Origin: Naegleria gruberi
Lineage: Eukaryota
DNA length: 64,000 bases
NCBI GenBank assembly: GCA_000004985.1
Contig: GG738854.1
Strand: one strand, 5' to 3'
Shown: one piece after another, positions 4,112 through 38,399 of the stretch
How the letters are laid out: each line of letters starts with the position of its first letter
How positions within the stretch are numbered: the stretch's first letter is position 1
Translations under genes and position numbers: made by a program
The notes under the pieces: model-generated
Told to the model about the DNA's origin: nothing
Seen by the model: the letters and a program-made list of their open reading frames with translations, nothing else
Database searches by the model: none

Positions 4112-4792
4112 TTACAATAGATTACTAATCTTGACTCTATCAAAACGTTTGGCTATTAGCGAAATGTCTTCATTGGAATATTTGGTTATCAGGTTTGGAT
4201 AATTCAATACAAAATCAACAGCCAAATCGATTGCTCTTGAATTTTCCTTATTGGAACTTGACTTTTGGTTTAACAGAGATTGAATTCTTCTATATGGCCA
4301 ACGTTCAATATTGAGTCTAGTCTTGATTCTTTTGAGTTTGCTCTTGGAACACCCTAAACGCTTTGCAGCTTCATTCTCTGGAAGGAAAAAGTGCTTTTTA
4401 ATATCATCATAACAAATGTAACTCTTTTGATTGGAACTAGTTCTATTGCATCGAATGATTTGAGATTGGTGTGAGGTTGTAAACTTATTCTTCAAGTCTA
4501 CTGATCTCATTCTTGACTTGCTATTGCATTCTTCTTCATTGGAACTTGAAGAAGATGTATTATCATCAAGAATGACTGTTTTACGAGTACGTTTGCTACT
4601 TCTTTTCAGTATCGAACCATTTTCATCAGAGTTTTGGCTTGATGCTGATGTATAGTCTGGAGCAATTGGAATACGAGTGGATGTTTTTACATTGGATAAC
4701 GAACAATCAGAATATTCCAAATCACTAGTATTGGATCTATCTCTCTTCATACTGATTGGATGTATTGTCACTACTGAGTTTAAGGTGAGCAT
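4112..4792 (-). CDS. RWP-RK domain protein (putative transcription regulator)
   Basis: ATG (minus) at 4792. The C-terminal segment KKHFFLPENEAAKRLGCSKSKLKRIKTRLNIERWPYRRIQSL matches the RWP-RK motif of NIN-like/MID proteins (F.LP...AAK.LG.s.T.LKR.CR..GI.RWPyRK). The N-terminal 130 aa is Ser-rich low complexity. Confidence 0.6.
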   Translation of the reverse strand: MLTLNSVVTIHPISMKRDRSNTSDLEYSDCSLSNVKTSTRIPIAPDYTSASSQNSDENGSILKRSSKRTRKTVILDDNTSSSSSNEEECNSKSRMRSVDLKNKFTTSHQSQIIRCNRTSSNQKSYICYDDIKKHFFLPENEAAKRLGCSKSKLKRIKTRLNIERWPYRRIQSLLNQKSSSNKENSRAIDLAVDFVLNYPNLITKYSNEDISLIAKRFDRVKISNLL

Positions 4793-7700: not shown

Positions 7701-8246
7701 TCATACCAGTAATGAAATTGGAGTGGGCATTTGGTGAATCTGTAACTGTAACTTGGGAATAGGGGCTGACCGGATGAGTTGAGAAGGTTGAATGGAGTTG
7801 GGAGGAGTTGGAACGGGGAAGGGAGACGAAATTGTCTATTGGATTGAGTATTGACACATGTTCTATTTGTCTCAATTGAAGAAGCTATTAAATCGTGATG
7901 GAATTGATTTGTGAACATTAAGGAAGGTGAAAGACAGATTATCGTTTTTGAGGGTTTGACTATGGCGTTTTGGAGTTGTATTACAACAACTATAATCAAC
8001 ATTTCATTCCTTTGAAAACATGTGTAGAGGAGAGGGAGGATACATGTGTAGAGGCAGTTCGATGGGAGTTTAGGAAAATGTTGGATGTGGAAAGGAGAAT
8101 GGTTGAAAATTTAGGAAAATTGTGAATTGTGATTGGAAATGTTGTTGATTGTAATGTGACAGGTGTCATTTCGGATGCTTTCCTTACATTCATAATTGGC
8201 AAGGTATTGAATTGATTCACCTACTAGAAAAATCAACACGAAAAAA

Positions 8247-10231
8247 ATGTTTCGAAACAGCCATCAAGAGACGTCAAATTTTGCATCAGACGAAAGTGAA
8301 GAGAAAGTTGAAGATACAAACGATGAATCATTAGTGAAAAGATATGAAAATGAATTGGTACATATAACAGGAACAGAAAATGTTTACGGGTTTAGTTCTT
8401 CAACAAGTGCAGAAAGAGTTTCGAATAGTGAATTGATGGTTTTAGGAAAGGCTGTCACCGAAGGCATTCAACGTTTGAATATTCAAGAAGAAACAGAAGA
8501 TGGTCCTTCTTCCGTCATTAGTGACAATCGAATAGTTTCAGAGCCATCATTATCACTCGAAACATTAGTCGAAACTATGCAACAACTCGAAGATTCTCAG
8601 AGAACAAACTCGCAACCAAATCAAACTCAACCTCTCACTTCAAAATTCATTCCCAAAGTAGATCACATACCACATAATGATCCTCAAGATTTGAATTTAC
8701 TTTCGGATGCTTTCGGATACAGCAGTGCTTATTATTGTTTCGGTTCTAATGAAGAGAATTTCCTTTCACTGGACTATTCTGCACTTGCTACAAGTGGAGA
8801 TTCGTATAATGGTGAAGTGATTTCAAAAGTTATGAGAAAATCCTTTACAAATCAATCAGTTGTTTTAAACGAAAGTCAACAAGCAAGGAGTGGCTTGGGA
8901 TTGGTAGATACTAATCAAAATGTTGACACTTCTCCATTCAAGGTTAGATGTTTGGGTGGAAATGAAGTAGTGGAACATATTAGAATTGGTGCCTACAACT
9001 TGGGAGTTATTACACGAAACCTTTCTAATAACTTTTCTAATGGAAACTCTAAAACTAACTGCTATATTTCTGGATCTAACGAAAGAGGTCAATTCGGCAG
9101 ACCAAAATCATTTAAGGGATCGAATGGTCTCATTAAAATTGACCATTTCGACAAGAATAATCTAACTTTGAAAGATATTGCCTTTGGCTCTTATTTCACC
9201 TTATTTCTAACTGAATGTGGAAAGGTTTTCTCCTGTGGAGAGAATGAAAATGGTCAACTGGGAACCAATTCTATTTCCAACCAATACGAAATCAAACAAA
9301 TGCGTGTCATTCATCCAGAAACTAAACTAGAAGAATTTGTTACTGACATTGAAACTGGCGCCTTTCACACACTTGCCAAAACTTTGAGTGGAAACATTTA
9401 TTCATGTGGATATAACTGTTGGGGGCAGTGTGCCATCTCTGAAATTGATGGAGATGTCATGGTTCCAACACTAATTGATAAATTTGGAAAGGACAAGATT
9501 GAGATTGAAAGAGTTATTTGTATTGAACATAATACTTTCTTTATTACAAAAGCAAATCCATATTCTGAAATTTATGGTAAGTTTTTGTTGTGTTATCAAA
9601 TAATTATTAAAAGATTTGTTGGAAATTAGGTTGTGGATTCTCAAAGAAAGGTCAATTGGGAAAGGATTTTGGAGAGGCAGTTAGAAATCCAGTGAAACTG
9701 GATTTTTTCACAGGGAAGGATTTGAGTGTTAAGAGTGTGAATGGTGGTTGGGGTCATGTCTGTATTGTAACTAATGGAGGTCAAGTATTCTCACAAGGAT
9801 TGAATGATTATGGTCAATTGGGATTGGGTGATTTAGAATCAAGAAAATCGCCAACTTTGGTTCCATTCTTTGATCATCTTTACAAAAATTGTAAACTTGA
9901 TAAGATAGAACAAGTCAGATGTGGAAGTTATCATTCTCTATTCCTCACTCGTTCAGGAAAACTCTTTGGATGTGGATACAATGAGATGGGATCCATTGCC
10001 TTAGGAAATGAACATTCATGGATTTCCACACCAACCCTAATTGTCCAATTCCCAAATTGCCTAATTGGAGAACCATTCTATGAATTGGAGGTTAAAACGT
10101 GGTGCTACACAACTTGCATTCTTGTAAAGAAGAGATTTAAGAGAATTGAGAATATGTTTGGCAGGTTGAGGAATTTATTGGCAAATGAAGAATTTAATTT
10201 TGGAGATGTTAAGATTATTTCATTGAATTAG
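8247..10231 (+). CDS. RCC1-repeat (regulator of chromosome condensation-like) protein. Two exons: 8247..9576 and 9630..10231
   Basis: ATG at 8247. Ser/Glu-rich N-terminus, then at least 7 RCC1-like blades with a recurring G(Q/E)LG signature (CGENENGQLGTNS, YSCGYNCWGQCAIS, GCGFSKKGQLGKD, FSQGLNDYGQLGLGD, FGCGYNEMGSIALGN). A phase-1 intron is required to join ...PYSEIYG|CGFSKKGQLG. Confidence 0.65.
9577..9629 (+). other. Spliceosomal intron (53 nt, GTAAGT...TTAG, phase 1)
   Basis: The sequence gtaagtttttgttgtgttatcaaataattattaaaagatttgttggaaattag lies between two RCC1-blade-encoding ORFs. The frames match only after splicing. Confidence 0.65.
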
Positions 10232-10348: not shown

Positions 10349-11874
10349 ATGATTAACATGTCAATGAAATCAATTTCACGTGAAATTAAAAAAATGTCTC
10401 ATTGGTTTAAAAACAATAATGTAGAGAGTGAAGATGATTCAGAGGAGGAAGCAGATGGAGAATATGTCGATGAAGAGAATGATGTTGCTGTTCAGGCACA
10501 AGCTTCCAATTCTGAACAGCTCTTGGTCAGCGTTTTGAGATACCTAGGAATAGATGATGAGACACTGAACAAGTTAGCTGATGAAAACTACATTTCTTCA
10601 TTACAAAGCAACTTGATTGACATTCCTTCGTATTTACAAACCAAGTTGGACAGCATTTTCTCAACATCTTTGAATAATTTTGAGTATGACAGCTGTCTTG
10701 GTGGAGGTGGTTGTGGAGTTGTGTTGAAATGTAGACACAAAATGGATGGTAAAATGTACGCTCTAAAGTTTATTCCCTTTGCTGATGAAGACGATGATTC
10801 GAATGGTCAAATATCCATCAATGAAGCATTGAAAGAAGTCAAAATTTTGTCTTCACTGCATCACGAGCATACAGTACGATATTACAATAGCTTTATTGAA
10901 AAGGAAATTCCAGAATCATTTAAAAAAGACATTATCCATGTTTGTAAAGAAAATGCAATAGAGATTTCTGATAAGTTTCTCGTCATTCAGATGGAATGTT
11001 GCTTCACTAACTTGGGTTCATTCCTCGACAAATATAAAATTGGAAAAGGAGAAAGAAACCAACTCAGATCTTTTCTTAGACAAACACTTACTGGACTCTC
11101 CTATCTCCATAGAGAGGGAATTGTGCACTACGATATCAAACCTCATAACATTCTAATCAGTGAAGAAAACAAAATCAAGATTACTGATTTTGGATTGAGT
11201 GCTACAGCAGGAAGATCCTCTGTTGGAGAGTGTGCTGATGATTGTGGAACATCTCTTTATTTTACTGACAAATTTCAAAAAGAAGAAAGGGATTTGTTTG
11301 CTTTGGGAATTACTTATTTCCTAATGTAAGTAAGGGTACTTAGTTGAATAGTAATTCAATATAAATAATCGATAGGATTAACAATGATAATCGTGAGGCC
11401 AGTAAATTGAAACAAGACCCAAATAATTATGAATTCTCAATTGATTTTACAGATATGGACAAGATGTTGATTAAGAAAATGCTTACTAATCCAACTAGTG
11501 CAGATGAGTTGATTAAAATAATTGACAAGAGCAAATATTTTTGCTGCAATTGCAATTTAGAACGTATTGGAATGGTACAGTTCATTGAGCATGAGAAATC
11601 TGAAGCGCATGTCAAAAAAATTGACCTCAACAAACAGCTTTCCAATATTACCGACGCAACCAATGCTCTAATTCGTATTTCTCAATCATGCAACATTCCT
11701 GAACCAATCTATAGCCATCCTTTAAATACAAGTTTCACTTGTAAGATAGATTTCAAAGCTAAAAGTCTGACTTCAAATGTTCATTCTACGAAAAAAGCTG
11801 CCAAAAACGAAGCTTCTCAATTAATGTTGGATCTTATTAAGGGAGAATGTTGTCAATTATTGAAAGACTCATAA
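10349..11874 (+). CDS. Ser/Thr protein kinase (non-RD type) with a C-terminal JAZ-type C2H2 zinc finger and a dsRNA-binding domain. Two exons: 10349..11325 and 11376..11874
   Basis: Kinase motifs: LGGGGCGVV (Gly loop), YALKF (beta3 Lys), EVKILSSL (alphaC Glu), HYDIKPHN (catalytic loop, with Y in the R position), ITDFGLS, DLFALGITYFLM (subdomain IX), DMDKMLIKKMLTNPTSADEL (XI). It is followed by KYFCCNCNLERIGMVQFIEHEKSEAHVKK, which is C-x2-C-x12-H-x5-H-KK, a matrin/JAZ-type finger. Then comes ATNALIRISQSCNIPEPIY...FTCKIDFKAKSLTSNVHSTKKAAKNEASQLMLDLI, which fits the dsRBD alpha1-beta-alpha2 pattern (KKxAKxxAAxxxL). Confidence 0.6.
11326..11375 (+). other. Spliceosomal intron (50 nt, GTAAGT...GATAG, phase 2)
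   Basis: The only acceptor in this stretch whose phase joins kinase subdomain IX to the frame-1 ORF carrying subdomain XI (...YFL|M|INNDNREASKLKQ...); a read-through would hit TAA at 11327. Confidence 0.5.
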
Positions 11875-12193: not shown

Positions 12194-12887
12194 ATGTCAA
12201 GCAATTACCAAACAGAAATTGTTGAAAAGTGGAACCAAGCTTTGACTCTTGCTCAATCCTACGAAAATGCCCCAGAAAAGTTTACTTCACACAGCAAGGG
12301 AGAAGTGACCATTACTGCATGTCAACATTCGGATGGGACTGTCATCAAGGGAGAGGTAAGTAAATTGGTTGGCCTTTTTATGTGAAAATTATATTCGAAA
12401 GTGCATTATTTCTAATTGTAAAGCTGCAGAATTAGTTAATATTCTGGAAGTGACAGACGTCCAAACTAGACAAAAATTCGATAACAAGACCAAAACCCTT
12501 AAAGTTCTCGAAGATTTCACTCATCAAAATGAAAAATTCAGTGTCAGACATTATGTCACCTTGTCGCCAACTGTCATTATTTCAGAACGCGATTTTCTCT
12601 ATGTAGAACATTGCCAAGTTTCTGAAAATTCCACAATTTATCTTACAACATCTGTAGATGGAATCTTCCCTTCTGACAAATGTATAGCTGTCGGTGTCAG
12701 AGCAACGAACGTTTTTAATTATTTGAAAATGATTCAAGAAGGTGATGATTTGAGAGTTGTATTCATTGGACAATATTTACCAGGTGGATGGATTCCAACA
12801 GCAGTTGCTAATCAGGCTGTGTACGAAAGACCTTTGGGTGTTGTCAATGCTGCAAAATGCATTGGAAAATCAACTAGAGGGGTTTAA
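12194..12887 (+). CDS. START / Bet v1-like lipid-binding domain protein. Two exons: 12194..12355 and 12402..12887
   Basis: ATG at 12194. Motifs typical of StAR-related lipid-transfer domains: SPTVIISERDFLYVEH (RDF), GVRATNVFNYLKMIQ, LPGGWIPTAVANQ (GWIP..vvN). Length is about 215 aa. Confidence 0.5.
12356..12401 (+). other. Spliceosomal intron (46 nt, GTAAGT...GAAAG, phase 0)
   Basis: The donor lies directly after the GE codon. The acceptor at 12400-12401 is the only AG that restores frame 3 (...VIKGE|CIISNCKAAELV...). Confidence 0.45.
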
Positions 12888-13666
12888 TTAGTTCAATAAT
12901 AAAATAGACGAAAGTTTTTTGTTCGAAAGATTTTAACTTCACCACCACTGAAGATTTCTTACTCATTTACATATCAGAAGATACCAACACTCAGTTTTCG
13001 ATATTTTACAAGAGGAACTTTCATAGTTTTGATAACTGAAGCAATTGTGAATACCACCAATATTAGACAAGAACCCAGAAGAACACCACTAACATCTTCT
13101 ACAAACAACCACAAATTCCATGCCAATTTCTGTTCGGCCGAATCGTCTAGATTTGTACAGATGATAACAGAATGAAATAGAACTTACAGTATCATGACTT
13201 TCAGCGTAGTCCATTCTTAAATTTTCCTATTGCCATAATAATCCAATGATATTGGAAGGTAAGGATCACTTGGAATCAATAAGGATCTTGTTCTCAGTGC
13301 CATACTACTCAATTATTAAGAGTTCATTGTGAATTGGAAGCGCAATATTATCACACACAAGATTATGTCGGACATTTAAGGTATTATACTCTGTGTGAGA
13401 GGGAGAAATATTAAGCCACTGTACAGATCGGTCACCTACCCAACCACTATCAAACTCCACTTAATCAATGTCCAACGAATGGAGAATTAGTTTTGTGTGT
13501 GGTCATGAGAAGAGACATCAGTTTTAATGGAGGAAATGTTTGGCGGGAATGTTGTGGACTTGTTAATTTGTGCTTGCGAGATGATTCAACACCAATCGAT
13601 TTAAAGATGTGTGTTGAATTGTTTGTGGAATCATCAAAAAAAAACAAGCTTAACACACAACTCAAT

Positions 13667-15067
13667 ATGACTGAGGAGAATATCAAGAAATTCTCTTGGG
13701 AAGAAATTGAGAAACACAACCATGAGGAAAGTGCTTGGTTGGTTATTGATGGAAAGGTTTATGATGTAACCAAGTTTATTCCTCATCATCCTGGTGGTGA
13801 TTACTTGTTATTGGGAGCTGGCAGACATTCGACTGAATTGTTTCTCAGTAATCATCCAGCCAAAATCCTAAACAATTCGAAAGCTCTATTAGAAAAGTAT
13901 TACATTGGAGAGGTTGAACAAGAAACAATCGTCACTAAAGAAATGGTTCAAAAGCAACATGTCAAGTATTCTTACAATCCACCAGATCAAACCAATTTCT
14001 ATCTTGAATGTAGAGCTCAAGTTGACCAATATTTGAAAGACAACAATCTCACTGCTAGAGATGTTCCTCAAATGTATCTCAAGATGATTCTTTCCCTGTG
14101 TATTTGGTTTATTCTATACTTGGGAACTTTCTATTATTTCGAATCAAAATTGCTCAGTTTCGTCGTTGCCATTGTTTGGGGTTGGTCCAATGCAAATATT
14201 GGTGTTAACATGATGCATGATGCTAATCATAGCTCCTTTTCCAATCATCCAACTATCAACAGAGTTGTGGCAGTTGTTTGTTTTGACATTTTAGGTGGTT
14301 CTTCCTATGTTTGGAAAATGATTCACTCAGTTGGCCATCACGTAAACACAAATATTGAAGAACGTGATCCTGACATTCACACAGGAGAACCTCACTTTAG
14401 AAAAATCAAATCAGCTCAGAAACATCATTGGTGGTATGCCTATCAACATTATTACTTGCCAGTTCTATATTGTTCCTTATTATTTGAGTTGGCATTTCGT
14501 GATTTCTTTGCCATGATGATTGGATCATGGGGAGGTGTCAAATTTCAACCACCTCCAAAAGGAGAATATTTGCTCTTCTTTTCTACAAAGATTTGGTGGT
14601 TGACCTATTCATTGGCTTTCCCAATTTGGTTTTCTAATCATTCAGTTGGAACTATTTTCATGTTGTGGTGTACTGCTTATATGGTTGCTTCATTCTTGTT
14701 GGTTTTAATTTTCCAAGTCAACCATGTCACAAATATTGCTGATTCTTTCCATGTCAATCAACAAGATGGAATGGTTCATGCTGATTGGGCAGCAACTCAA
14801 GTAAGTGGATCGAGTAACTTTGCCTGTGGATCATGGTTATGGAATCACTTGTCAGGTGGCTTGTGTCATCAAGTAGAACATCATCTTTTCCCATCCATTA
14901 GTCATATCCATTATCCAAAGATTCAACCCATTGTTGAGAAGTGTGCTAAAAAGTATGGAATCAAGTATAATAGTTATGGAACTTTTTGGGAGGCCATTAT
15001 TGGTCATTTCACATTATTAAGGGATATGGGTCAGAAGGGAATTCAATCAAATTGGAAATCCATGTAA
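13667..15067 (+). CDS. Front-end fatty-acid (or sphingolipid) desaturase with an N-terminal cytochrome b5 domain
   Basis: First in-frame ATG at 13667 (MTEENIKKFSWEEI). Cyt b5 heme motif HPGGDYLL. Three His boxes: HDANHSS, HSVGHHVNTN and QVEHHLFP. A Q-x2-HH third box is diagnostic of front-end desaturases. Multiple TM segments. Confidence 0.8.
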   Translation: MTEENIKKFSWEEIEKHNHEESAWLVIDGKVYDVTKFIPHHPGGDYLLLGAGRHSTELFLSNHPAKILNNSKALLEKYYIGEVEQETIVTKEMVQKQHVKYSYNPPDQTNFYLECRAQVDQYLKDNNLTARDVPQMYLKMILSLCIWFILYLGTFYYFESKLLSFVVAIVWGWSNANIGVNMMHDANHSSFSNHPTINRVVAVVCFDILGGSSYVWKMIHSVGHHVNTNIEERDPDIHTGEPHFRKIKSAQKHHWWYAYQHYYLPVLYCSLLFELAFRDFFAMMIGSWGGVKFQPPPKGEYLLFFSTKIWWLTYSLAFPIWFSNHSVGTIFMLWCTAYMVASFLLVLIFQVNHVTNIADSFHVNQQDGMVHADWAATQVSGSSNFACGSWLWNHLSGGLCHQVEHHLFPSISHIHYPKIQPIVEKCAKKYGIKYNSYGTFWEAIIGHFTLLRDMGQKGIQSNWKSM

Positions 15068-28129: not shown

Positions 28130-31100
28130 ATGTCTGTTGCAGAAGCTTCTAATAATGGTGCAGCTGCAACTACATTTATTGAAAGGAGTATTAATTTTAA
28201 TGAATCATCAACCATACAACAATCATCATCACAACAACGAGAAAATCAACATGTGTCGGGAAGTTTTATAGGAAGCAATACGAGTAGTTCATCTAGCTCG
28301 ACCAATTTTTCAGCAACAATGATGAAAAGTATTAAGGAAGCTATTGTGTCCTATATAATTTCAATGCAATACAAGCCACTGAGGCAGGGCAAAAAGTTTA
28401 TGCTTCTCTCTGTTTTGTATCATTTGTATATAATGTGGATTTCCATCTTTTTACCAACACTAGGCGATTATAATTGGGGAGAATATGCAAATTGGATATT
28501 CAAGGCAGTAAATTATCCAGTAACCCTTTCACTAGATTTAATTCCCTATGGTGGCATTGAGGCTTTGGGAGCAATTGTGTTTGCAATCAGTGCCCTATCT
28601 GTTCTTGTTGTTATAATGGCAGTTGCGAGTGTTCATAGGACGAGTAAACACATTGAGAGGGTGAGATTAATAGTAATGGTGACTGGACTTGTTCTCTCTC
28701 TGTTGGGACCACTCTTTGCATTTATTCTGACGGGCTTTACAGATTGTGAATACAAGCAAAAGGTGTACTTTGAGAGTATAGATGATAAGGCATATGCTCT
28801 TTCTAGATATCCAGAAGCAGAGTGCTTTGGGGATAATATGTACCTTTACATTATTTCAATTATTGCAGTATTCGGAATTTGTCTATCCATATTATGCACC
28901 TTAATTTCCTTCTCATCAAGTTGGAAGAGTGACATGGTATTCAAAACAGTTGTCCATTATCCATTATCATACTTGGTTATTAGTAATATTCTTCAAATGT
29001 TCATCATGTATTTTATTCATGATGAGTTCATGTATGGAAGAGCAATCCTTCACTTGATTATTTCAGCAAGTTGGATTCCTATACTATTCTATGAACTGCC
29101 CTTCCAATACAGATATGAAAATTCAATTTATTCTGGAGTGGGTTTTGCAAGAATAGGAGCATCAATTGGTTCTCTGATATCTTCCCTTGCCAACTCAGCT
29201 GACAATTCAGGTTTTGGTTTGGGAATGTTTGGCTTAACGTTCGCTCTTATTATCATTTCATTCATTGGTGGAGTAATAGGAATGGAATTATACATTAGAT
29301 TATCTACTCACAAGATTAGAAGTTACATGTTGTCTATTGTTGAGAAAACTCTATCTGTTAGTGGATCATTGCCTTCGAAATTCAAAGAAAGAGCCAAATA
29401 CATTCTGGAAAAAGAGGCCACTTCAATTTACTCCCATTTCATTGAAACACAACAGGCAGGATATTTAAGAATATTTATTCGATTCAGCATTGATCAAAAC
29501 TCTAAAAACAGCTCAGAAGCCATCCTCACAAACACTGATTTATCTCTGTATTTCATTAAGGGTGCGTCAACTCAAAGATCATTCAACGATAGCAAAACTC
29601 TTCTCTATTCATCCATGTTAATTTATTTCAACTATGGAGATGGTAATTTAGGATCAATGTATGCAAAAGGGTTGTTGAAAATCTTGGCAAAGCAAAAATT
29701 GAATATACCAGAAGTAATTATGTTAACAGAGTTTTCTAAGGAAATTAAGGATGAGAATAGTGTAAATTCATCTGATCTCGAACAATTATTGAATAAGGTA
29801 GAGAGTAATATAGCTGAATTGAAGTCCCTCCATAAGGCCTTCTGGAAAGAATATTTGCAAGATGTAATTGAAGTGGGAACTTTGGAATCGATTAATAACA
29901 AGTGTTCACAACTGATGAGCCAATGCGAAACTATTTTCAATAATAGGCTTTCCAGATACAAACACAATAAGAATTTCCTCAGAGCGTATGCACAATTTTT
30001 AAACGAAATCAAATTTGACAAGGAAACTGCCTTTGAAATATTCCAAGACGCAGCCATTGTTGACGAAGATGAGCCATCTAAAAAACGTGTTCTTGCTAAG
30101 AGTAATTTATTCACAGAATATGGTAAACAGCATTCTGAAACCAATTTGGGGTTTTCTCTAGATGGCTTAAAGGCTAGCAACCAAAAGAGTATGGACATTG
30201 AAACAATTCATGAAGATCAAATGTTGGATGGAGTTGAGAATGATCCACTTGCAAAACGGGAGTTCATTTTCAAAAGTGCTCTCTCCCAACCACAACAAGG
30301 AGGATATCATATGGGATCTGTTATCCTGTTCTGCTTTATATCCTTCTCTTTTGTGCTCCTTGCCTTAGTTTTGAATGTTTATTATTCAGTGGAAGTTCTT
30401 TCAAATGTCAAGTTTGTTCAGCAAGTTTGTGAGCCAACTGTTTCTTCATATGCCATTTTGAAACAAATCAGAAATAATCAAATACTCCTTCAAGCTAAAA
30501 ATCAGGGTCTAGATGTTGATGAAACAGATATTATGGGTATTCTTAAGGACGAGACAAACGAAAATATTACTTCCATACAATCTGTTTGGAAGGAGAGACT
30601 TAATTTCTATGTTGAACATATTGAACATGTTAAAAAGATGTCACAAGGTAAAATTGTTGGAAAATTCACACCTGAAATGTATGAAGATTACAATAGTGAA
30701 ACAAATGAAATATTTGTTCCTGTGATTCAAACAAAGAATCAAAATTCATTCATTGAGGTCATTAAGAAGAATGTTTCACTCTCTGAAATATCATCACTCT
30801 TGATTGATATTGTTGAAAATTATCCATCAGGAGGATACAATGAAACATTGAAAGAATATGATTTCATGTTGGTATTCTTGAATAGGGAAACTTTCACAAA
30901 TGCCTTTGTGAAAACATGTTTCAGTTTCTTGGAAAGATGTGAACTTGACTCCAAAAATTTCAACAATTACTACCTATACTTTTATGTTTCTGTATTGTCA
31001 TTTTACATTCTTTACACAGCCATCTATATTCTCTATGTAAGAATTGAATTCTCATTTATCACTAGAACCATTAGATTAATGGAACGCAGTATTTCAAAGG

Positions 31101-33157
31101 ATATTGTAGGTAAAATCTATCAAGATTTGGCAAAGAAAGTAGAAGAAAATGCTTCTTTGGGATTTCTCAAATCAATAATCAGCCAACCAAAAGTGTTTTC
31201 TGTTTTTTGTATTGCTTGTTTGGCTTTTCTTACAATACTTGCATCTTCAATGATGTTCGTAGAGTTGAGAATTAATTCTGATCTAGGATATTCAACAATG
31301 TTGAGTGTGCATAAGACCGCCGAAAATCTTGTTTTGGTTCAGTCAATTGGATACAAACTAAATGAGATTTTCTTTTCCACTCTATCACCCTCTTTATATA
31401 ATGACCCTATCTTAATCAATGGAACCCTCTTAGATTATTACAGGGTGGAGGTGAGATACAATGTAACAGATTTGAGAAGAAGTTTTAACGAATTGATTTA
31501 TGGTAAGCTTGGAGGAAATTCAGCAATTTTAGGAATGATACCAAGAATTGATCAGATTATTACAGGAACTGATTGTTCTTCTGGCAATTGTACAAGTTTG
31601 GAAAACTCTTTGGACGAATTTACAATTGGATCTAGCAAGTTCAACGAAGATTTGCTTAAAGGAACTTTTACAGAGGAAGAGTTGGTTTTAAAGAATGCTG
31701 TTGTGGATGAATTGAGCCACCACCTAAGTGTAGACTTTCTTGAATTTTTGGCCTTGTTTACCATTGCAAGATCAATACCTTCTACTGCTATTGCACTAAT
31801 TTTCAGTATTCTTGGATTTCTCACAATAGTTATTTTCTATTGGTTACTGGTTCGAGTGTTTCAAATTCATTGGAATGATGTATTCCATTTAAGAAGCATG
31901 TTGAACTATGTAGATTATGACTACTTGGATTCTTATGACTCTTTAAGAAACTTTATTCTATACCATCAACTGCCTTCTAGAAACCTGTTCAAAAAGAAGA
32001 ATAAGATTGCCTCAGCAGAGGGTGACGAATCGAAGGTGAAGAATATTCTCAATGCAGCAGTTGACGGAGCTATTCTTTGTAATAGTACATGTGATATTGA
32101 AATATTCAATCCAGCAGCTCAAAGAATGTTTGGATGCAAACAATCAGATACTTTGGGAACTCCAATTTTCACTCTCTTTGATAAAGAATCGAGGACAGAG
32201 TTGGAGAGAGTCATTTCTGAATTGATTAAGAATGCCAAATCGACAACATCTTCTGAAAGTCTTGGTGAAACTGTTGAATTGGATTGTGTGAGAAAGAACT
32301 TGACAAAATTCCCTGCGAAAATCAATTTGTTCTCAACACTGTTTGATGGAAAACCAGTTGTGACATGTTTCATTAAGGATGCAACTTCTGAAAAGAAACA
32401 AAATGCATTGTTGGCTGAAGAAAAGAAAAAATCTGAAAATCTATTGAGATCTATTTTGCCAGAAAGTGTTGCCAATAGATTGAAATCTGGTGAAACATTC
32501 ATTGCTGAGAAATTTGCAGATATTACTTGTTTCTTTTCTGACATGGTTGGATTCACTCAAATGTCTTCAACTCTCAATCCAACTCAATTGGTTGGAATGT
32601 TAAATAATATTGTGAATGGATTTGATGCCTTAACAGACAAATATAGTTTGGAAAAGATCAAGACAATTGGAGATGCCTATTTCTGTGTTGGAGGAATTGG
32701 AAATACACAATCTGATCACCCAGAAAGAATACTTCGTTTCTCAATGGACATATTCTTAGTAGTACGTAACTATAACGAGGAGAATGGGAAAGAATTTGGA
32801 CATCAAATCAATATTCGAGTTGGAGTGAATACAGGAAGTGCAGTTGCAGGTGTGATTGGTACAAAGAAATTTGCCTATGATTTGTGGGGTGATACCATCA
32901 ACACTGCTTCTCGAATGGAATCAACATCAATTGCTGGAAGAATTCAAATTTCCAGATCAACTTATGAAAGAGTTTATGATATGGGTCTTGAATTTGAAGA
33001 AAGAAGTGTTGAAGCAAAAGGAAAGGGTTTGTGTCTCACTTATTTAGTCAAATCTCATCACCATGCACAGGCCATAGTTTCTGATAACGAAATCATTGAT
33101 TCTGACCTCGAGGTTTCCCTAACTACAAAACCAGAGGATGCAAAGGCAGAGATATAA
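28130..33157 (+). CDS. Multi-TM PAS-domain class III adenylyl cyclase (paralog A)
   Basis: ATG at 28130. Single 1,675-aa ORF. About 10-12 TM helices in the first 420 aa. Two further TM segments sit mid-protein. PAS-like segment ILNAAVDGAILCNSTCDIEIFNPAAQRMFGCKQSDTLGTPIFTLF. Cyclase domain LLRSILPESVANRLKSGE...FSDMVGFT...KIKTIGDAYF...YDLWGDTINTASRME has both metal-binding Asp, the transition-state N and R, and the K/D substrate pair that indicates ATP. Confidence 0.85.
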   Translation: MSVAEASNNGAAATTFIERSINFNESSTIQQSSSQQRENQHVSGSFIGSNTSSSSSSTNFSATMMKSIKEAIVSYIISMQYKPLRQGKKFMLLSVLYHLYIMWISIFLPTLGDYNWGEYANWIFKAVNYPVTLSLDLIPYGGIEALGAIVFAISALSVLVVIMAVASVHRTSKHIERVRLIVMVTGLVLSLLGPLFAFILTGFTDCEYKQKVYFESIDDKAYALSRYPEAECFGDNMYLYIISIIAVFGICLSILCTLISFSSSWKSDMVFKTVVHYPLSYLVISNILQMFIMYFIHDEFMYGRAILHLIISASWIPILFYELPFQYRYENSIYSGVGFARIGASIGSLISSLANSADNSGFGLGMFGLTFALIIISFIGGVIGMELYIRLSTHKIRSYMLSIVEKTLSVSGSLPSKFKERAKYILEKEATSIYSHFIETQQAGYLRIFIRFSIDQNSKNSSEAILTNTDLSLYFIKGASTQRSFNDSKTLLYSSMLIYFNYGDGNLGSMYAKGLLKILAKQKLNIPEVIMLTEFSKEIKDENSVNSSDLEQLLNKVESNIAELKSLHKAFWKEYLQDVIEVGTLESINNKCSQLMSQCETIFNNRLSRYKHNKNFLRAYAQFLNEIKFDKETAFEIFQDAAIVDEDEPSKKRVLAKSNLFTEYGKQHSETNLGFSLDGLKASNQKSMDIETIHEDQMLDGVENDPLAKREFIFKSALSQPQQGGYHMGSVILFCFISFSFVLLALVLNVYYSVEVLSNVKFVQQVCEPTVSSYAILKQIRNNQILLQAKNQGLDVDETDIMGILKDETNENITSIQSVWKERLNFYVEHIEHVKKMSQGKIVGKFTPEMYEDYNSETNEIFVPVIQTKNQNSFIEVIKKNVSLSEISSLLIDIVENYPSGGYNETLKEYDFMLVFLNRETFTNAFVKTCFSFLERCELDSKNFNNYYLYFYVSVLSFYILYTAIYILYVRIEFSFITRTIRLMERSISKDIVGKIYQDLAKKVEENASLGFLKSIISQPKVFSVFCIACLAFLTILASSMMFVELRINSDLGYSTMLSVHKTAENLVLVQSIGYKLNEIFFSTLSPSLYNDPILINGTLLDYYRVEVRYNVTDLRRSFNELIYGKLGGNSAILGMIPRIDQIITGTDCSSGNCTSLENSLDEFTIGSSKFNEDLLKGTFTEEELVLKNAVVDELSHHLSVDFLEFLALFTIARSIPSTAIALIFSILGFLTIVIFYWLLVRVFQIHWNDVFHLRSMLNYVDYDYLDSYDSLRNFILYHQLPSRNLFKKKNKIASAEGDESKVKNILNAAVDGAILCNSTCDIEIFNPAAQRMFGCKQSDTLGTPIFTLFDKESRTELERVISELIKNAKSTTSSESLGETVELDCVRKNLTKFPAKINLFSTLFDGKPVVTCFIKDATSEKKQNALLAEEKKKSENLLRSILPESVANRLKSGETFIAEKFADITCFFSDMVGFTQMSSTLNPTQLVGMLNNIVNGFDALTDKYSLEKIKTIGDAYFCVGGIGNTQSDHPERILRFSMDIFLVVRNYNEENGKEFGHQINIRVGVNTGSAVAGVIGTKKFAYDLWGDTINTASRMESTSIAGRIQISRSTYERVYDMGLEFEERSVEAKGKGLCLTYLVKSHHHAQAIVSDNEIIDSDLEVSLTTKPEDAKAEI

Positions 33158-33356
33158 TGAATCCATTTTGGTAATATAGAATCATTTTATTTGCCAATAT
33201 ATTTTCCTTTTTTGTCACTTAACGATTCTGACAACCAATGATGGCGATGTTAGTGAGTTACAGAAATGGCGGGTAAAACATGAAATCTCAATTCTTATTA
33301 AAAAAAACATCATTAACCCTTCTTGAATACAAAAAGATATTGGTTTGCTTTTTAAA

Positions 33357-36300
33357 ATGTCCGGGAGTGATGAGTTGGAGGCCTCTGCTATAGAAGACGA
33401 CCAAAGATCTAATTATTTCGAATCGAGGACTCATATGAAAGGAAATGGAGAAGGCTCAAGTATTGTTGGAAGTGCACTAAGTGTTCAATCGAATAATAGT
33501 ACAATAGCCTCGACAACTATGAGAACAGTGCAAACTGGAATATTGACTTTTATTTTGGCTCTACAGGATAAATCATACAAGAAATCAAAGAGGTTTATTT
33601 TTATTTCAATACTGTATCATTTGTATATCATTTGGACTTCAATCTTCTTACCAACACTAGGCGAATACAATTGGGGAGAGTATGGAAGTTGGATTTTCAA
33701 AGCACTTAATTATCCAATCACATTTTCATTAGATTTGGTGCCCTATGAAGAGAGTGCTGCAATTGCAGGTGTCATTATGGCTGTCATCTTGTTGGGTTTG
33801 TTTTTTGTGTCATTTTCTGCTTGGACTGTTTATAGAAATAGCAAGTTGGTTGAAAAGATGAAAGTGGTAATGGCTGTGTCGAGTTTGGTGTTTTCAGTGC
33901 TGAGCAAACCATTTGCTTTTGTTTTGGCTGGTTTTATTGATTGTGACTTTTCAAAGACAGTTTACTTTGAAGATATTGATGATAATACTAATGCACTTTC
34001 TCGATTCCAAACAGTTGCTTGTTTTGGAGGTAACACGTACTTGTATGCACTTTCGATTATTTCAATGCTTGCATTTTCTCTAGTGATACTTTCAACTCAT
34101 TTTGCCTATTCTCCTAGTTGGAGGAGTAAGGTTGTGTTTCATACAGTTGTTGGTTGGCCCATTACCTATTTGGTTATTTCAAACATGCTTGAGATTTATC
34201 TAATATTCTTTATTCCAAAATCTGAAATTTGGGCAAGAGCTACTTTACATTTGGTAGCAGCCCTGACATTTGTTCCAATGATTCTAATTACACTTCCCTT
34301 TCAGAGACGTATTGAAAATTCCTTCTATCTTGCTGTAGCTTTTGCAAAGGTTGGATCTTCAATTGGTTCACTCATTTCTTCCTTGGTCAATTCTAATAAT
34401 AAGTGGGATTTAGGTCTTGGAATGTCAGGTTTAACAATTGGTCTCATTATTTTAGGTTTCTGTGTTGGATTCATTGTGATGGAGTTGTATATACTAAGAA
34501 CAATGGCTTTCATTAGACACAAGATGATTAAGGCCATCGAGAGAGGAGTTTCCATTTCAGATACTGCTCAAACTCAACTTTCAGAGTCTGCAAAAATGGG
34601 CCTTGAAAGAGAAGCTACAAATATCTATTCCTCACTTCATGAATCACAAAGTTTGAACAAGCTCAAAATATTTATTAGGTTTAACATAATCCGAAGAAGC
34701 AAGCAAACAAAGGCAATACTAGACGATACGGATATGTGTCTCGCATTTATTAAGGGTGTTTCTCATCAGAAAACATTCAATGATCCTTCTCTAATATTGT
34801 TCTCCAGTTTACTTATCTATGTCAACCATCCAGATGAATCGAATAGCTCAATTTTTGCCAATAGTTTGTTGAAAAAAACTACGCGAGTCAAGTTATCATT
34901 CTTTGAGAAAGTTACCCTTGGTGAGGTTACCAAAGAATTGAACATCTCTAAAAATGGTAAAGTTGCAAGAAACACAACAGACTTGGAATCATTGCTAGTT
35001 AGAGTTGATTCAAATTTTTCGCAACTCAAATCTCTTCACAAATCCTTCTGGAAAGAATTTTTACAAGATGTTGTTGACACTACTAACTTGGAAGTTATCA
35101 ATAGTAAATGTGCTCAATTGATGGCTGACTCTGAAAATATTTTCCACAATAGAATTTCAAGATATAAGAATAACAAAACCTTCTTGAGATCATATGCTCG
35201 CTTTCTAGATGAAATCAAGTTTGACAAGGATCAAGCTGCTGAACTCTTCCAAGAAGCAGCAACTATGGAAGAGGAAGAGCTTGCCACAAAGAGAAGGAGG
35301 CAGAGAAAGTTTAGTCGTGTTGTGCCCTATGATGGACCTGTAGTAAGCGTTGAACCTCCTGCATTCTCTCTCGATGGGTTGAGAAAGGGAACAAATGAAC
35401 CAATTACAAACCTAATGGATGATGATTTTGATGATCATATGTTGGATGGTGTTGAGAATGAACCTGCAACTAAGAGAGAGTATGTTTTCAAAGCGGCTCT
35501 AGCACAAAAGACCAACGGAGAGTTGCACGTGGCCTCTGTAGTAATGTTCTGCCTTCTTTCATTTGCAATAATACTTGTTTCCCTTGTGTTGAATGTGTAT
35601 TATTCAGAGGAAGTTCTTTCAAATGTCAAGTTTGTCCAACAAGTTTGTGAACCAACTGTTTCTTCATATGCAATCTTGAAACAAATCAGAAATAATCAAA
35701 TACTAATCCAAGCAAAGAATCAGGGTATTGGTGTTCAGGAAGCTGAACTAATTGACGTCTTGGAAATAGAAACAGATAGCAACATTACTGTAACAAGTTT
35801 AAATGAGATTTGGAAGGAGAGACTTAATTTCTATGTTGAACATATTGAACATGTTAAAAAGATGTCACAAGGTAAAATTGTTGGAAAATTCACACCTGAA
35901 ATGTATGAAGATTACAATAGTGAAACAAATGAAGTATTTGTTCCTGTGATTCAAACAAAGAATCAAAATTCATTCATTGAGGTCATTAAGAAGAATGTTT
36001 CACTCTCTGAAATTTCATCACTCTTGATTGATATTGTTGAAAATTATCCATCAGGAGGATACAATGAAACATTGAAAGAATATGATTTCATGTTGGTATT
36101 CTTGAACAGGGAAACTTTCACAAATGCCTTTGTGAAAACATGTTTCAGTTTCTTGGAAAGATGTGAACTTGACTCTGTGCAATTTGATAACACTTTCCTC
36201 TATTTCTTTGTTGGTTCTGCCTGTTTTTATATTCTGTCCTCCCTAATTTACATTATTTACATCAGGATTCAATTCACTCTAGTTGCCAACACACTGGCAT

Positions 36301-38399
36301 TATACGAAAGACATTTAACAAAAGACTTGGTTGGTAAGATCTACCAAGAATTAGGAAAGAATGTTGATGAGAATTCTACCACTAGCTTCCTTAAATCTTT
36401 CATTACCAAACCAAAGGTATTTTCTTTTGTTTGTATCCTTTCTTTGGCTTTTCTTACAATTCTTGCATCATCAATGATGTTTTTGGAGTTGAGATTGAAC
36501 TCTGACTTGGGATTTTCAACCATGTTGAGTGTGCGCAAGACTGCAGAATCATTAGTGTTGGCCCAATCAATTGGGCACAAGTTGAATGAGCAGTTCATAT
36601 CAACACTTTCTTCATCTATTTACAATGATCCCTTGCTTGTAAACAACTCAACAATGAATCTATTCAGATATGAAGTGAGATATAATGTTACTGATTTTAG
36701 AAGAACATATAATGAGCTGATTTACGGAAAAATAGGAGTTTCACCAACCATTCTTGGCGCCATTCCAAAGATTGATGAAATTATTACAGGAACAGACTGT
36801 ACTGCTGGAAACTGCACAAGTTTGGAAAACACAGTCGATGAGTTCACTATTAAATCAAGCAAGTACAATGAGGATTTGATGAAAGGTGTTTTCTCTCCAG
36901 AGGAGCTAATTTTGAAAAACACAGTAGTTGATGGTTTGGTACATCATTTGTGTGTTGATTTGTTAGAGTTTTTGGCCTTGTTTACCATTGCTAGATCAAC
37001 ACCATCAACAATTATTGCACTTCTATTCGGTATATTTGGATTTTCTGCCGTAGTGTTATTTTTTGGCTTGTTGAACAAGGTGTTCCACAATCATTGGAAT
37101 GATATTTTCCATTTAAGAAACATGTTGAATTATGTTGGATATGATCACTTGGATTCCAGTGATCCTTTGAGAAACTATGCTTTGTACAATCAGTTACCAG
37201 GTAAGAATATATTCAAAAAGAAGAATAAGATTGCCTCAGCAGAGGGTGATGAATCCAAAGTAAGAAATATTCTCAATGCAGCAGTTGATGGAGCAGTGTT
37301 GTGTAACAGTGCATGCGATATTGAAATATTCAATCCAGCAGCTCAAAGAATGTTTGGATGCAAACAATCAGATACTTTGGGAACTCCAATTTTCACTCTC
37401 TTTGATAAAGAATCGAGGACAGAGTTGGAGAGAGTCATTTCTGACTTGATTAAGAATGCCAAATCGACAACATCTTCTGAAAGTCTTGGTGAAACTGTTG
37501 AATTGGATTGTGTGAGAAAGAACTTGACAAAATTCCCTGCAAAAATCAATTTGTTTTCAACACTGTTTGATGGAAAACCAGTTGTGACATGTTTCATTAA
37601 GGATGCAACTTCTGAAAAGAAACAAAATGCATTGTTGGCTGAAGAAAAGAAAAAGTCTGAAAATCTATTGAGATCTATTTTGCCAGAAAGTGTTGCCAAC
37701 AGATTGAAATCTGGTGAAACATTCATTGCTGAGAAATTTGCAGATATTACCTGTTTCTTTTCTGACATGGTTGGATTCACTCAAATGTCTTCAACCCTCA
37801 ATCCAACTCAATTGGTTGGAATGTTAAATAATATTGTGAATGGATTTGATGCCTTAACAGACAAATATAGTTTGGAAAAGATCAAGACAATTGGAGATGC
37901 CTATTTTTGTGTTGGAGGAATTGGAAATACACAATCTGATCACCCAGAAAGAATGCTTCGTTTCTCAATGGATATTTTCCAAATATTGAGAACCTACAAT
38001 GAACAGAATAGAAAGGAATTTGGACATCAAATCAATATTCGAGTTGGAGTGAATACAGGAAGTGCAGTTGCAGGTGTGATTGGTACAAAGAAATTTGCCT
38101 ATGATTTGTGGGGTGATACCATCAACACTGCTTCTCGAATGGAATCGACATCAATTGCTGGAAGAATTCAAATTTCCAGATCAACTTATGAAAGAGTTTA
38201 TGATATGGGTCTTGAATTTGAAGAAAGAAGTGTTGAAGCAAAAGGAAAGGGTTTGTGTCTCACTTATTTAGTCAAATCTCATCACCATGCTCAAGCAATC
38301 ATTACGGATGATGTTGTTGATTTTGTTCCAGAAGAAGAAAAGGATGAGCAAGACTTGGAAGTAAGCTATCCTGTTAGGTCCAGTAAAGATGAAGAATAA
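33357..38399 (+). CDS. Multi-TM PAS-domain class III adenylyl cyclase (paralog B, tandem duplicate)
   Basis: First ATG at 33357 (MSGSDELEA). The ORF-track start at 33345 is a TTG. Same architecture as paralog A. The N-terminal half is roughly 50-60% identical to A at protein level. The 3' ~1.1 kb and an internal ~0.37-kb block are >=99% identical to A at nucleotide level. Confidence 0.85.
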   Translation: MSGSDELEASAIEDDQRSNYFESRTHMKGNGEGSSIVGSALSVQSNNSTIASTTMRTVQTGILTFILALQDKSYKKSKRFIFISILYHLYIIWTSIFLPTLGEYNWGEYGSWIFKALNYPITFSLDLVPYEESAAIAGVIMAVILLGLFFVSFSAWTVYRNSKLVEKMKVVMAVSSLVFSVLSKPFAFVLAGFIDCDFSKTVYFEDIDDNTNALSRFQTVACFGGNTYLYALSIISMLAFSLVILSTHFAYSPSWRSKVVFHTVVGWPITYLVISNMLEIYLIFFIPKSEIWARATLHLVAALTFVPMILITLPFQRRIENSFYLAVAFAKVGSSIGSLISSLVNSNNKWDLGLGMSGLTIGLIILGFCVGFIVMELYILRTMAFIRHKMIKAIERGVSISDTAQTQLSESAKMGLEREATNIYSSLHESQSLNKLKIFIRFNIIRRSKQTKAILDDTDMCLAFIKGVSHQKTFNDPSLILFSSLLIYVNHPDESNSSIFANSLLKKTTRVKLSFFEKVTLGEVTKELNISKNGKVARNTTDLESLLVRVDSNFSQLKSLHKSFWKEFLQDVVDTTNLEVINSKCAQLMADSENIFHNRISRYKNNKTFLRSYARFLDEIKFDKDQAAELFQEAATMEEEELATKRRRQRKFSRVVPYDGPVVSVEPPAFSLDGLRKGTNEPITNLMDDDFDDHMLDGVENEPATKREYVFKAALAQKTNGELHVASVVMFCLLSFAIILVSLVLNVYYSEEVLSNVKFVQQVCEPTVSSYAILKQIRNNQILIQAKNQGIGVQEAELIDVLEIETDSNITVTSLNEIWKERLNFYVEHIEHVKKMSQGKIVGKFTPEMYEDYNSETNEVFVPVIQTKNQNSFIEVIKKNVSLSEISSLLIDIVENYPSGGYNETLKEYDFMLVFLNRETFTNAFVKTCFSFLERCELDSVQFDNTFLYFFVGSACFYILSSLIYIIYIRIQFTLVANTLALYERHLTKDLVGKIYQELGKNVDENSTTSFLKSFITKPKVFSFVCILSLAFLTILASSMMFLELRLNSDLGFSTMLSVRKTAESLVLAQSIGHKLNEQFISTLSSSIYNDPLLVNNSTMNLFRYEVRYNVTDFRRTYNELIYGKIGVSPTILGAIPKIDEIITGTDCTAGNCTSLENTVDEFTIKSSKYNEDLMKGVFSPEELILKNTVVDGLVHHLCVDLLEFLALFTIARSTPSTIIALLFGIFGFSAVVLFFGLLNKVFHNHWNDIFHLRNMLNYVGYDHLDSSDPLRNYALYNQLPGKNIFKKKNKIASAEGDESKVRNILNAAVDGAVLCNSACDIEIFNPAAQRMFGCKQSDTLGTPIFTLFDKESRTELERVISDLIKNAKSTTSSESLGETVELDCVRKNLTKFPAKINLFSTLFDGKPVVTCFIKDATSEKKQNALLAEEKKKSENLLRSILPESVANRLKSGETFIAEKFADITCFFSDMVGFTQMSSTLNPTQLVGMLNNIVNGFDALTDKYSLEKIKTIGDAYFCVGGIGNTQSDHPERMLRFSMDIFQILRTYNEQNRKEFGHQINIRVGVNTGSAVAGVIGTKKFAYDLWGDTINTASRMESTSIAGRIQISRSTYERVYDMGLEFEERSVEAKGKGLCLTYLVKSHHHAQAIITDDVVDFVPEEEKDEQDLEVSYPVRSSKDEE

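Follow-up and report, generated by a model that had tools for sequence, protein, structure and literature searches.

A kinase-finger-dsRBD fusion in Naegleria: a candidate RNA-regulated eIF2-alpha kinase with a PKR-like layout in reversed order

Introduction

PKR is the textbook link between the sensing of double-stranded RNA (dsRNA) and the shut-off of translation. Whether its design arose more than once is the question raised by a gene of the amoeboflagellate Naegleria gruberi, located on the plus strand at positions 10349-11874 of a 64,000-nucleotide (nt) stretch of contig GG738854.1 (assembly GCA_000004985.1), which is called the window below and to which all N. gruberi positions refer. 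The product is named 'CAMK family protein kinase' at NCBI. An earlier note, prepared from the letters of the window, had described it as a protein kinase followed by a dsRNA-type zinc finger and a double-stranded RNA-binding domain (dsRBD), and had proposed a PKR-like module in reversed order. In the literature on Naegleria eIF2-alpha kinases (eIF2AKs), on the Naegleria kinome and its PEK family and on non-vertebrate PKR-like proteins, no account of this protein was found.

The reading that is favoured here is that of an eIF2AK of the Naegleria lineage carrying a C-terminal module for binding RNA duplexes, made up of a U1/JAZ-like finger and a divergent dsRBD, which would be activated by RNA and would reduce protein synthesis; its probability is put at roughly 0.5. 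The parts of this reading differ in strength. The architecture, a reversed-order PKR-like succession of kinase, finger and dsRBD, is very probable, and for a function as an RNA-regulated kinase, proposed by analogy, the odds are about even.

Gene structure and conservation of the fusion

The gene model, which contains a single short intron, comprises the following elements.

10349-11874, plus strand: whole gene, coding sequence with one intron; product of 491 amino acids (aa) from the first ATG.
10349-11325, plus strand: exon 1, whose last two bases, AT, are the start of a Met codon.
11326-11375, plus strand: intron of 50 nt in phase 2 (GTAAGT...GATAG), which splits the Met codon AT/G and joins in frame.
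11376-11874, plus strand: exon 2, a single open frame that completes the kinase C-lobe and then encodes zinc finger and dsRBD up to the stop.
10349-10648, plus strand: acidic N-terminal region of ~100 aa, aligned weakly to the N-terminus of the N. lovaniensis protein.

Unspliced, the open reading frame (ORF) 10349-11329 runs into a TAA stop (11327-11329) directly after ...GITYFLM; since exon 2 is needed to complete the kinase, no arbitrary splice has to be assumed for the fusion. The spliced product is 100% identical, splice junction included, to the NCBI protein (P0001), a model of 476 aa that starts at M16 (nt 10394). A Pfam scan of the N-terminal ~100 aa gave nothing significant and no recognised domain.

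A HMMER scan of 1.84 billion representative proteins retrieved only one full-length relative, from Naegleria lovaniensis (P0108, XP_044542082; 469 aa). Its identity to the N. gruberi protein is 30% by BLASTP and 21% in the tail, and the BLASTP alignment begins in the acidic N-terminus, takes in the kinase and ends in the zinc finger. The N. lovaniensis gene has three exons, the last of which encodes C-lobe, finger and dsRBD together, and its second intron (65 nt, phase 2) lies in the Met codon aligned with the N. gruberi intron, as seen from the boundaries of both (slashes mark the splice sites).

N. lovaniensis: ...GAA AT/GTATGT...ACAAG/G TTA
N. gruberi: ...CTA AT/GTAAGT...GATAG/G ATT

Because intron and architecture are shared at 30% identity, the splice can be considered real and the fusion an inherited, selected feature with no gene-model artefact involved. 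On the strength of this comparison, the kinase-finger-dsRBD fusion is judged to be real and conserved in two Naegleria species.

Copies of the fusion are found in N. lovaniensis at 8001-9533 of locus L001 (PYSW02000064.1) and, as a protein of 576 aa (P0223), on another contig. The two copies are ~97% identical (16 differences in 469 aa), one of them having a 107-aa Ser-rich N-terminal extension, and they could reflect either a recent duplication or contigs of different haplotypes. The 17.5-kb N. lovaniensis locus has, besides the kinase, no ORF with a match in the 64-kb window; as the loci are not syntenic, positional orthology is not established. No relatives of the C-terminal module occurred in the metagenome contigs or IMG/VR viral contigs that were scanned, and the metagenome scan with the N. 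lovaniensis protein returned one kinase-only match, at 26% identity.

Assignment of the kinase domain to the eIF2-alpha kinase family

The elements of the kinase domain on which its assignment depends are listed below.

10649-11526, plus strand: protein kinase domain assigned to the eIF2AK family (aa ~101-376, with the intron inside; Pfam Pkinase, 1e-37).
10868-10900, plus strand: HTVRYYNSFIE, the eIF2AK signature (consensus VRYYxxWxE), found in the PKR, GCN2 and HRI-like groups and not in the other kinases of the set.
10901-10975, plus strand: insert of 25 aa between strands beta4 and beta5, KEIPESFKKDIIHVCKENAIEISDK, flanked by HTVRYYNSFIE and FLVIQMECC.
11126-11149, plus strand: catalytic loop HYDIKPHN, non-RD (Tyr in place of the HRD Arg), as read from the sequence.
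11377-11427, plus strand: degenerate helix alphaG region, INNDNREASKLKQDPNN, which does not have the TxxER...L..LR motif of eIF2AKs.

The catalytic core is complete, with the G-loop GGGGCG, the VAIK lysine K140, which is K125 in the NCBI model, the Asp of HYD, N267 and DFG, in agreement with the complete and active-looking kinase of the earlier note, which had also pointed out the non-RD loop. The insert that it had placed between beta4 and beta5, where eIF2AKs carry theirs, had been estimated at ~20 aa and is slightly longer. Such an insert is described as specific to eIF2AKs and spans 14-34 residues in PKR (PMC2291453).

Comparison with solved structures points in the same direction. In phmmer searches of the PDB, the best matches of the N. 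gruberi kinase are GCN2 (1e-23), PERK (5e-20) and PKR (2e-19), with HRI at 3e-16. Ranks 1-17 (distinct sequences) are all GCN2, PERK or PKR, at 87-67 bits; CDKL3, the first kinase outside the family, scores 66.5 bits, compared with 87 for GCN2, and kinases of the CAMK type (DAPK3, CDPK) reach ~59 bits. For N. lovaniensis, the first 19 matches are all eIF2AKs (GCN2 117, PKR 90, PERK 86 and HRI 66 bits), followed by PLK2 at 64. A scan against NCBIfam gave generic bacterial kinase models only.

These rankings bear on the possibility that the gene encodes an ordinary CAMK-type kinase with a tail that resembles a finger and a dsRBD by coincidence. Such a view has the NCBI product name on its side, as well as the fact that the kinase domain is the only part of the protein to pass its curated Pfam threshold, but CAMK-type kinases score 14-28 bits below the eIF2AKs, and motifs specific to eIF2AKs are present together with the insert. 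Moreover, the features of the tail recur at homologous positions in a homolog of 30% identity (21% in the tail), and the shuffle controls given below argue against chance. Coincidence is accordingly considered highly improbable, and the 'CAMK family' annotation is not supported by the similarities detected.

In the scan of representative proteins, ranking by whole sequence puts gene models of fish and frog PKR on top. These ranks are inflated due to the tandem kinase domains in the models; when proteins are re-ranked by their best single domain, the lead is taken by proteins with dsrm and kinase domains (PKR), kinases bearing HRI2_3H, plant GCN2-like proteins and a choanoflagellate fragment. 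As a side observation, with two or three kinase domains and as many as six dsRBDs, many publicly deposited fish and amphibian PKR gene models (P0055-P0064) are probably tandem PKR/PKZ genes that have been merged, hence their inflated whole-sequence similarity scores.

A kinase phylogeny, which the earlier note had suggested as a check, was built from 82 kinase domains aligned to a common hidden Markov model (HMM), with insert columns removed, by bootstrapped neighbour-joining. The N. gruberi and N. lovaniensis kinases are sisters (69/100) and fall within a clade made up of every PKR, GCN2-like and HRI-like sequence (69/100). All 13 PKR sequences form a group of their own, with the Naegleria pair outside and internal nodes at <=23/100, and the pair adjoins GCN2-like sequences with support of <=11/100. 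Because taxa were sampled by their similarity to the query, the tree informs about family membership only and not about fine placement. Taken together, sequence comparisons identify the kinase as a member of the eIF2AK family and not of the CAMK group. PKR orthology and horizontal transfer from vertebrates were considered and rejected: the PKR ranks come from tandem-kinase gene models, and in the tree Naegleria does not group with PKR.

Family motifs kept and lost

The two Naegleria kinases differ in how many family motifs they retain, as seen from the following alignment of motifs.

Strand beta4 signature: VRYYxxWxE in eIF2AKs, VRYYSVWTE in N. lovaniensis, VRYYNSFIE in N. gruberi.
Strand beta5 signature: IQMExC in eIF2AKs, MQMEYC in N. 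lovaniensis, IQMECC in N. gruberi.
Arg/Asp pair before beta1: SRxxxDF in eIF2AKs, SRLRKDF in N. lovaniensis, STSLNNF in N. gruberi (R to T, D to N).
Helix alphaG motif: TxxER...L..LR in eIF2AKs, TGTERLENLKDLR in N. lovaniensis, NDNREASKLKQDP in N. gruberi.
Catalytic loop: HRD in eIF2AKs, HSD in N. lovaniensis, HYD in N. gruberi.
Subdomain XI: RP in eIF2AKs, TRPSA in N. lovaniensis, absent in N. gruberi.

In active dimers of PKR, GCN2 and PERK, the Arg/Asp pair before beta1 reportedly makes a salt bridge between the two molecules. Both Naegleria proteins have acidic residues (DD, ED) upstream of the activation-loop GT, where PKR has its activation-loop phosphothreonine. Given the non-RD loop and these acidic residues, activation probably proceeds without phosphorylation of the activation loop. 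As to family membership, the main tests speak for the eIF2AKs, and three features typical of the family are missing in N. gruberi (the Arg/Asp pair, the alphaG motif, and the HRD with the activation-loop Thr). The Naegleria family as a whole looks like a genuine eIF2AK family with unusual activation chemistry: the N. lovaniensis protein has everything expected for docking of eIF2-alpha, and the N. gruberi copy has, from its motifs, diverged at both surfaces relevant to dimer activation and to eIF2-alpha docking.

The C-terminal module

Exon 2 continues beyond the kinase with two elements of RNA-binding type.

11536-11619, plus strand: C2H2 zinc finger YFCCNCNLERIGMVQFIEHEKSEAHVKK, with ligands C382, C385, H398 and H404 (C-x2-C-x12-H-x5-H).
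11650-11847, plus strand: divergent dsRBD of ~65 aa (aa 418-483), Pfam dsrm 21.3 bits.
11791-11805, plus strand: KKAAK, which corresponds to the KKxAK RNA-contact motif at the start of helix alpha2 and aligns to the tKKeAKq consensus of PKR dsRBDs; its lysines are K465, K466 and K469.

The finger stands where the earlier note had read it, C-terminal to the kinase. The strict ligand pattern occurs in 2.2e-4 of 200,000 protein shuffles and a looser one in 6.4e-3. Alignment of the two species shows no change in any of the four zinc ligands, the spacing in N. lovaniensis being C-x2-C-x14-H-x5-H. An AlphaFold2 (AF2) prediction from a 3-sequence alignment gives the finger as a beta-hairpin followed by a helix (beta-beta-alpha), at a predicted local distance difference test score (pLDDT) of 69-79, and this is the only confident part of the model. 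When searched against the PDB with Foldseek, ranks 1-13 are mostly fingers of U11 small nuclear ribonucleoprotein (snRNP), JAZ ZF3, U1C, TUT1 and SF3A. The finger and the helix that follows it superpose on JAZ ZF3 (2mkd) with a probability of 0.99 and a root-mean-square deviation (rmsd) of 1.1 A over 43 columns, at a non-significant E-value; further matches are U1C (4pjo, 5zwn, 6g90) and dsRNA-bound JAZ (2mkn), and classical DNA-binding C2H2 fingers are found below the U1-like fingers. At the sequence level, the best match of a two-species profile to PDB sequences is the classical C2H2 finger of ZNF496 (E = 0.39), and an Arg is found four positions past the second Cys, where an aromatic residue is usual. 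Placing the finger in the JAZ/U1 class, on the basis of the ligand spacing (H-x5-H) and of Foldseek top matches that are themselves non-significant, seems reasonable.

The segment that follows was confirmed to contain the string STKKAAKNEASQLMLDLI, with KKAAK at 11791-11805. In the C-terminal 137 aa, Pfam dsrm (PF00035) is the only significant family among 24,736 models (21.3 bits, E = 4.2e-4), the match covering profile positions 29-64. In the N. lovaniensis C-terminus, dsrm is likewise the only Pfam match with E < 1 (14.7 bits, E = 0.046) and covers profile positions 1-66. A local dsRBD HMM built from 68 dsRBDs of the retrieved PKRs scores 19.2 bits against the N. gruberi tail (p ~6e-8 as a single test), to be compared with a maximum of 13.8 among 5,000 shuffles. 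With hhalign, the N. gruberi tail reaches a probability of 93.9% (score 37.1) over template columns 6-73 of 73, and the N. lovaniensis tail 86.0% (score 31.2); the best of 150 shuffles gave 16.3 and 18.3, and the reversed sequences 12.3 and 9.6, for N. gruberi and N. lovaniensis, respectively. Within the segment, HSTKKAAKNEAS aligns to the consensus GktKKeAKqaAA, the GPxH of the beta1-beta2 loop is replaced by HPLN and the stretch from alpha1 to beta1 is 4-5 residues short; in N. lovaniensis, an insertion lies between strands. The profile matches and their controls suggest that the segment is, with good probability, a real dsRBD of divergent type. Since KKxAK is complete, RNA binding by the N. 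gruberi dsRBD is plausible.

How the protein may work, and what weighs for and against

By analogy with PKR, a mode of action can be inferred, from RNA binding through activation by clustering to the substrate and to any antiviral role. The C-terminal module of finger and dsRBD would attach to RNA duplexes of the A-form. With several molecules bound to the same duplex, kinase domains would become locally concentrated and thus activated, and the active kinase would then phosphorylate a translation factor and lower protein synthesis. For the N. lovaniensis protein, the substrate would most likely be Ser51 of eIF2-alpha; for N. gruberi, the substrate is uncertain. The notion of a PKR-like layout assembled independently, already expressed in the earlier note, agrees with a kinase that lies outside the PKR group, with RNA-binding parts that are C-terminal and with the same architecture in N. 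lovaniensis.

Several observations weigh against an RNA-activated eIF2AK. With regard to the finger, Pfam scans of the proteins of both species, reporting to E <= 10, found no zinc-finger family (neither zf-met, PF12874, nor zf-C2H2_jaz, PF12171), and the Foldseek E-values are not significant, none being below 0.27. With regard to the dsRBD, the dsrm score in N. gruberi is below the curated gathering cutoff of 23 bits, as is that in N. lovaniensis, where KIEAK takes the place of KKxAK. In the AF2 model from three sequences, the segment has a pLDDT < 50, with helices at the expected positions of alpha1 and alpha2 and no confident strands. The alignment was deliberately left unpadded by canonical dsRBDs because the prediction would have become circular, and a single-sequence prediction of the full protein has a mean pLDDT of 33.5. 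The C-terminal region has no match among PDB sequences, and a MAFFT family profile of it gave chance-level matches only. Finally, a single dsRBD-like segment is present, C-terminal to the kinase, whereas PKR uses at least two dsRBDs. The matrin/JAZ/U1 class named by the earlier note thus rests on the spacing and on a non-significant structural ranking and not on the profiles, and its dsRBD of ~65 aa on the dsrm E-value and the shuffle controls and not on the cutoff or on the predicted fold; the Pfam scan that it had proposed for both elements produced a significant, sub-cutoff dsrm match and nothing for the finger.

Some of these observations could mean that the segment is a dsRBD that does not bind RNA ('type B'), or a module for dimerisation or partner binding, in a constitutively dimerising, partner-regulated eIF2AK-like kinase. 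The divergence of the segment (HPLN for GPxH, the short alpha1-beta1 stretch, KIEAK and the insertion between strands in N. lovaniensis) and its score under the Pfam cutoff would suit such a module. However, all three lysines and the alanine of KKxAK are kept in N. gruberi, the adjacent finger has H-x5-H and RNA-binding structural neighbours (JAZ, U1C, TUT1), and RNA binding is the simpler explanation for a pair of neighbouring modules that are both of RNA type. A type B segment is therefore held to be rather improbable.

Other adverse observations concern the kinase. The N. gruberi domain lacks both the R/D pair of the dimer salt bridge (STSLNNF for SRxxxDF) and the alphaG TxxER motif for eIF2-alpha docking, each kept in N. 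lovaniensis, and it has lost the APE Glu and the subdomain XI Arg; the HRD Arg, which is present in all sampled eIF2AKs, is missing in both Naegleria proteins. Due to the loss of the pair, of TxxER, of the APE Glu and of the subdomain XI Arg, phosphorylation of eIF2-alpha by the N. gruberi copy is uncertain. It could even be that this copy is drifting or has been re-purposed, no longer recognising eIF2-alpha and acting on other substrates or as an RNA-binding scaffold. Such a fate would account for the loss of the pair, of TxxER and of the subdomain XI Arg in N. gruberi alone, and for a C-lobe that, from the end of alphaF (FLM in N. gruberi, YEM in N. lovaniensis) to alphaH, is ~7 residues shorter than in N. 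lovaniensis. On the other hand, the frame of 491 codons is intact and the intron conserved, and the preservation of catalytic residues, zinc ligands and KKAAK argues for continued selection; besides, the proposal concerns the substrate only and is compatible with an RNA-regulated activity. It is given a low probability, close to that of a type B dsRBD and marginally under it.

The last adverse point is distribution. The gene was found in two species only, N. gruberi and N. lovaniensis, and a search with a three-member profile retrieved at family level only the proteins of these two species, with no N. fowleri member. This narrow distribution also bears on the main rival, a housekeeping role in which finger and dsRBD would anchor the kinase on ribosomal RNA or on a different cellular ribonucleoprotein (RNP), and the protein, like GCN2, would signal translational stress or nutrient stress and would not sense foreign dsRNA. 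Both Naegleria kinases score highest against GCN2, and their neighbour in the tree is GCN2-like, with negligible support. U1/matrin-type fingers occur mostly in cellular RNPs, as do the snRNP fingers matched by Foldseek, and the C-terminal ribosome-binding region of GCN2 is said to have bound dsRNA in vitro. However, the Naegleria protein has no RWD, HisRS-like or GCN2 C-terminal domain, Pfam recognising Pkinase and dsrm only; presence in two Naegleria species at 30% identity is unusual for a core stress pathway; and the proximity to GCN2 has a bootstrap of <=11/100. A housekeeping role is thus unlikely on balance, though less so than any other alternative considered here.

To return to the RNA-activated eIF2AK, its broadest formulation, which is tentative and clearly less probable than the reading itself, holds that a free-living amoeboflagellate (Discoba) independently invented a duplex-RNA-sensing eIF2AK through the fusion of a GCN2/PKR-type kinase with a C-terminal JAZ-like finger and a dsRBD, with a non-RD loop and with a divergence, that of the N. 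gruberi alphaG included, driven by an arms race with viruses. The protist lineage of Naegleria is host to giant viruses. If this formulation were true, dsRNA-triggered translational shut-off would be a cell-autonomous defence against viruses that has arisen repeatedly and extends beyond jawed vertebrates, this version of it would work without phosphorylation of the activation loop, and the fast divergence between species, again with the N. gruberi alphaG, would reflect an arms race with Naegleria viruses. More generally, a natural Naegleria fusion of eIF2AK and dsRBD in the opposite order and with an RNA-type finger would be a second, independent origin of the PKR design, and would provide a natural test of which features are essential to PKR (domain order, dsRBD number, RD loop and dimer salt bridge). 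It would also supply a candidate effector of innate immunity in a protist lineage and a correction of the 'CAMK family' annotation.

Genomic neighbourhood

Directly upstream of the kinase lies a gene with RCC1 repeats (RCC1-like domain) in two ORF pieces, 8247-9629 and 9656-10231 on the plus strand, apparently separated by a short intron, and its stop is ~115 nt before the first ATG of the kinase ORF. Directly downstream is a plus-strand gene at 12194-12887 without a Pfam match, in which a GTAAGT intron lies near 12349. Other features of the window are as follows.

4112-4792, minus strand: ORF with an RWP-RK domain (E = 4.5e-19), a transcription factor class.
13493-15067, plus strand: fusion of cytochrome b5 and fatty-acid desaturase, of the front-end desaturase type.
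28130-33157 and 33345-38399, plus strand: adjacent ORFs of ~1,680 aa, both with TPR (TmcB-type), PAS and adenylate/guanylate cyclase catalytic domains, which suggest that a large sensor cyclase was duplicated in tandem.
39445-40806, plus strand: PHO4 phosphate transporter.
44538-45653, minus strand: DUF4116-repeat protein with 6 repeats.
45949-47718, plus strand: carboxylesterase.
50362-54474, plus strand: ORF of 1,370 aa with no Pfam family.
56000-59654: segment in which the G+C content drops from ~34% to 25-29%.
59655-62957: run of N (assembly gap).

Comparison with known systems

PKR (EIF2AK2), known from jawed vertebrates, is a close parallel in layout. Like the N. gruberi protein, it unites in one polypeptide an eIF2AK domain with a short beta4-beta5 insert and a dsRBD of the KKxAK type, and its kinase domains rank near the top when the 1.84 billion proteins are compared by single domain. 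It differs by its tandem N-terminal dsRBDs, whereas the RNA-binding parts of the Naegleria protein are C-terminal and consist of one dsRBD (at least two in PKR) and an additional C2H2 finger; the Naegleria kinase is non-RD, has in the N. gruberi copy neither the TxxE motif of alphaG nor the salt bridge of the dimer, and falls outside the PKR clade in the neighbour-joining tree. On account of tree position, domain order and dsRBD number, the protein is placed outside that clade, and these comparisons present it as a convergent analogue of PKR and not as an ortholog.

PKZ of fishes illustrates that the nucleic-acid-binding module on an eIF2AK domain is exchangeable, and a protein with z-alpha and kinase domains (P0057) is among the top matches; PKZ is, however, nested in the PKR clade and has an N-terminal Z-alpha, while Pfam finds no z-alpha domain in the N. 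gruberi protein. Among solved structures, the kinase domains of GCN2 (EIF2AK4) score highest with both Naegleria proteins; GCN2 shares the motifs VRYYxxWxE and IQMEYCE with them and, with N. lovaniensis, also SRxxxDF and TxxERxxxLxxLR. With ~1,600 aa, it is much larger than the Naegleria protein (476-491 aa), which is non-RD and devoid of the pseudokinase, RWD, HisRS-like and C-terminal dimerisation/ribosome-binding domains. As for the fingers of JAZ/ZNF346, U1C and the matrin type, the likeness lies in the spacing C-x2-C-x12-H-x5-H and in the superposition of the AF2 model on 2mkd, 4pjo and 2mkn; the differences are the missing profile match to zf-met or zf-C2H2_jaz, the non-significant Foldseek E-values, the Arg in place of an aromatic residue and the x14 spacing of N. 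lovaniensis.

In a survey of 246 genomes, dsRBD-bearing kinases (the PKR group) were found in jawed vertebrates only (Wu et al. 2024; PMC11305385), and Naegleria is not named in the text of that paper; as its score is below the Pfam threshold, the Naegleria dsRBD would escape such a screen. The same study (Wu et al. 2024, Sci Adv; PMC11305385) reports that an EIF2AK is activated by forced dimerisation and that grafting dsRBDs on a plain EIF2AK, together with two substitutions, yields a putative dsRNA sensor. Those chimeras carry N-terminal dsRBDs of human PKR on a shark kinase, whereas the Naegleria protein is a natural fusion with its modules at the C-terminus.

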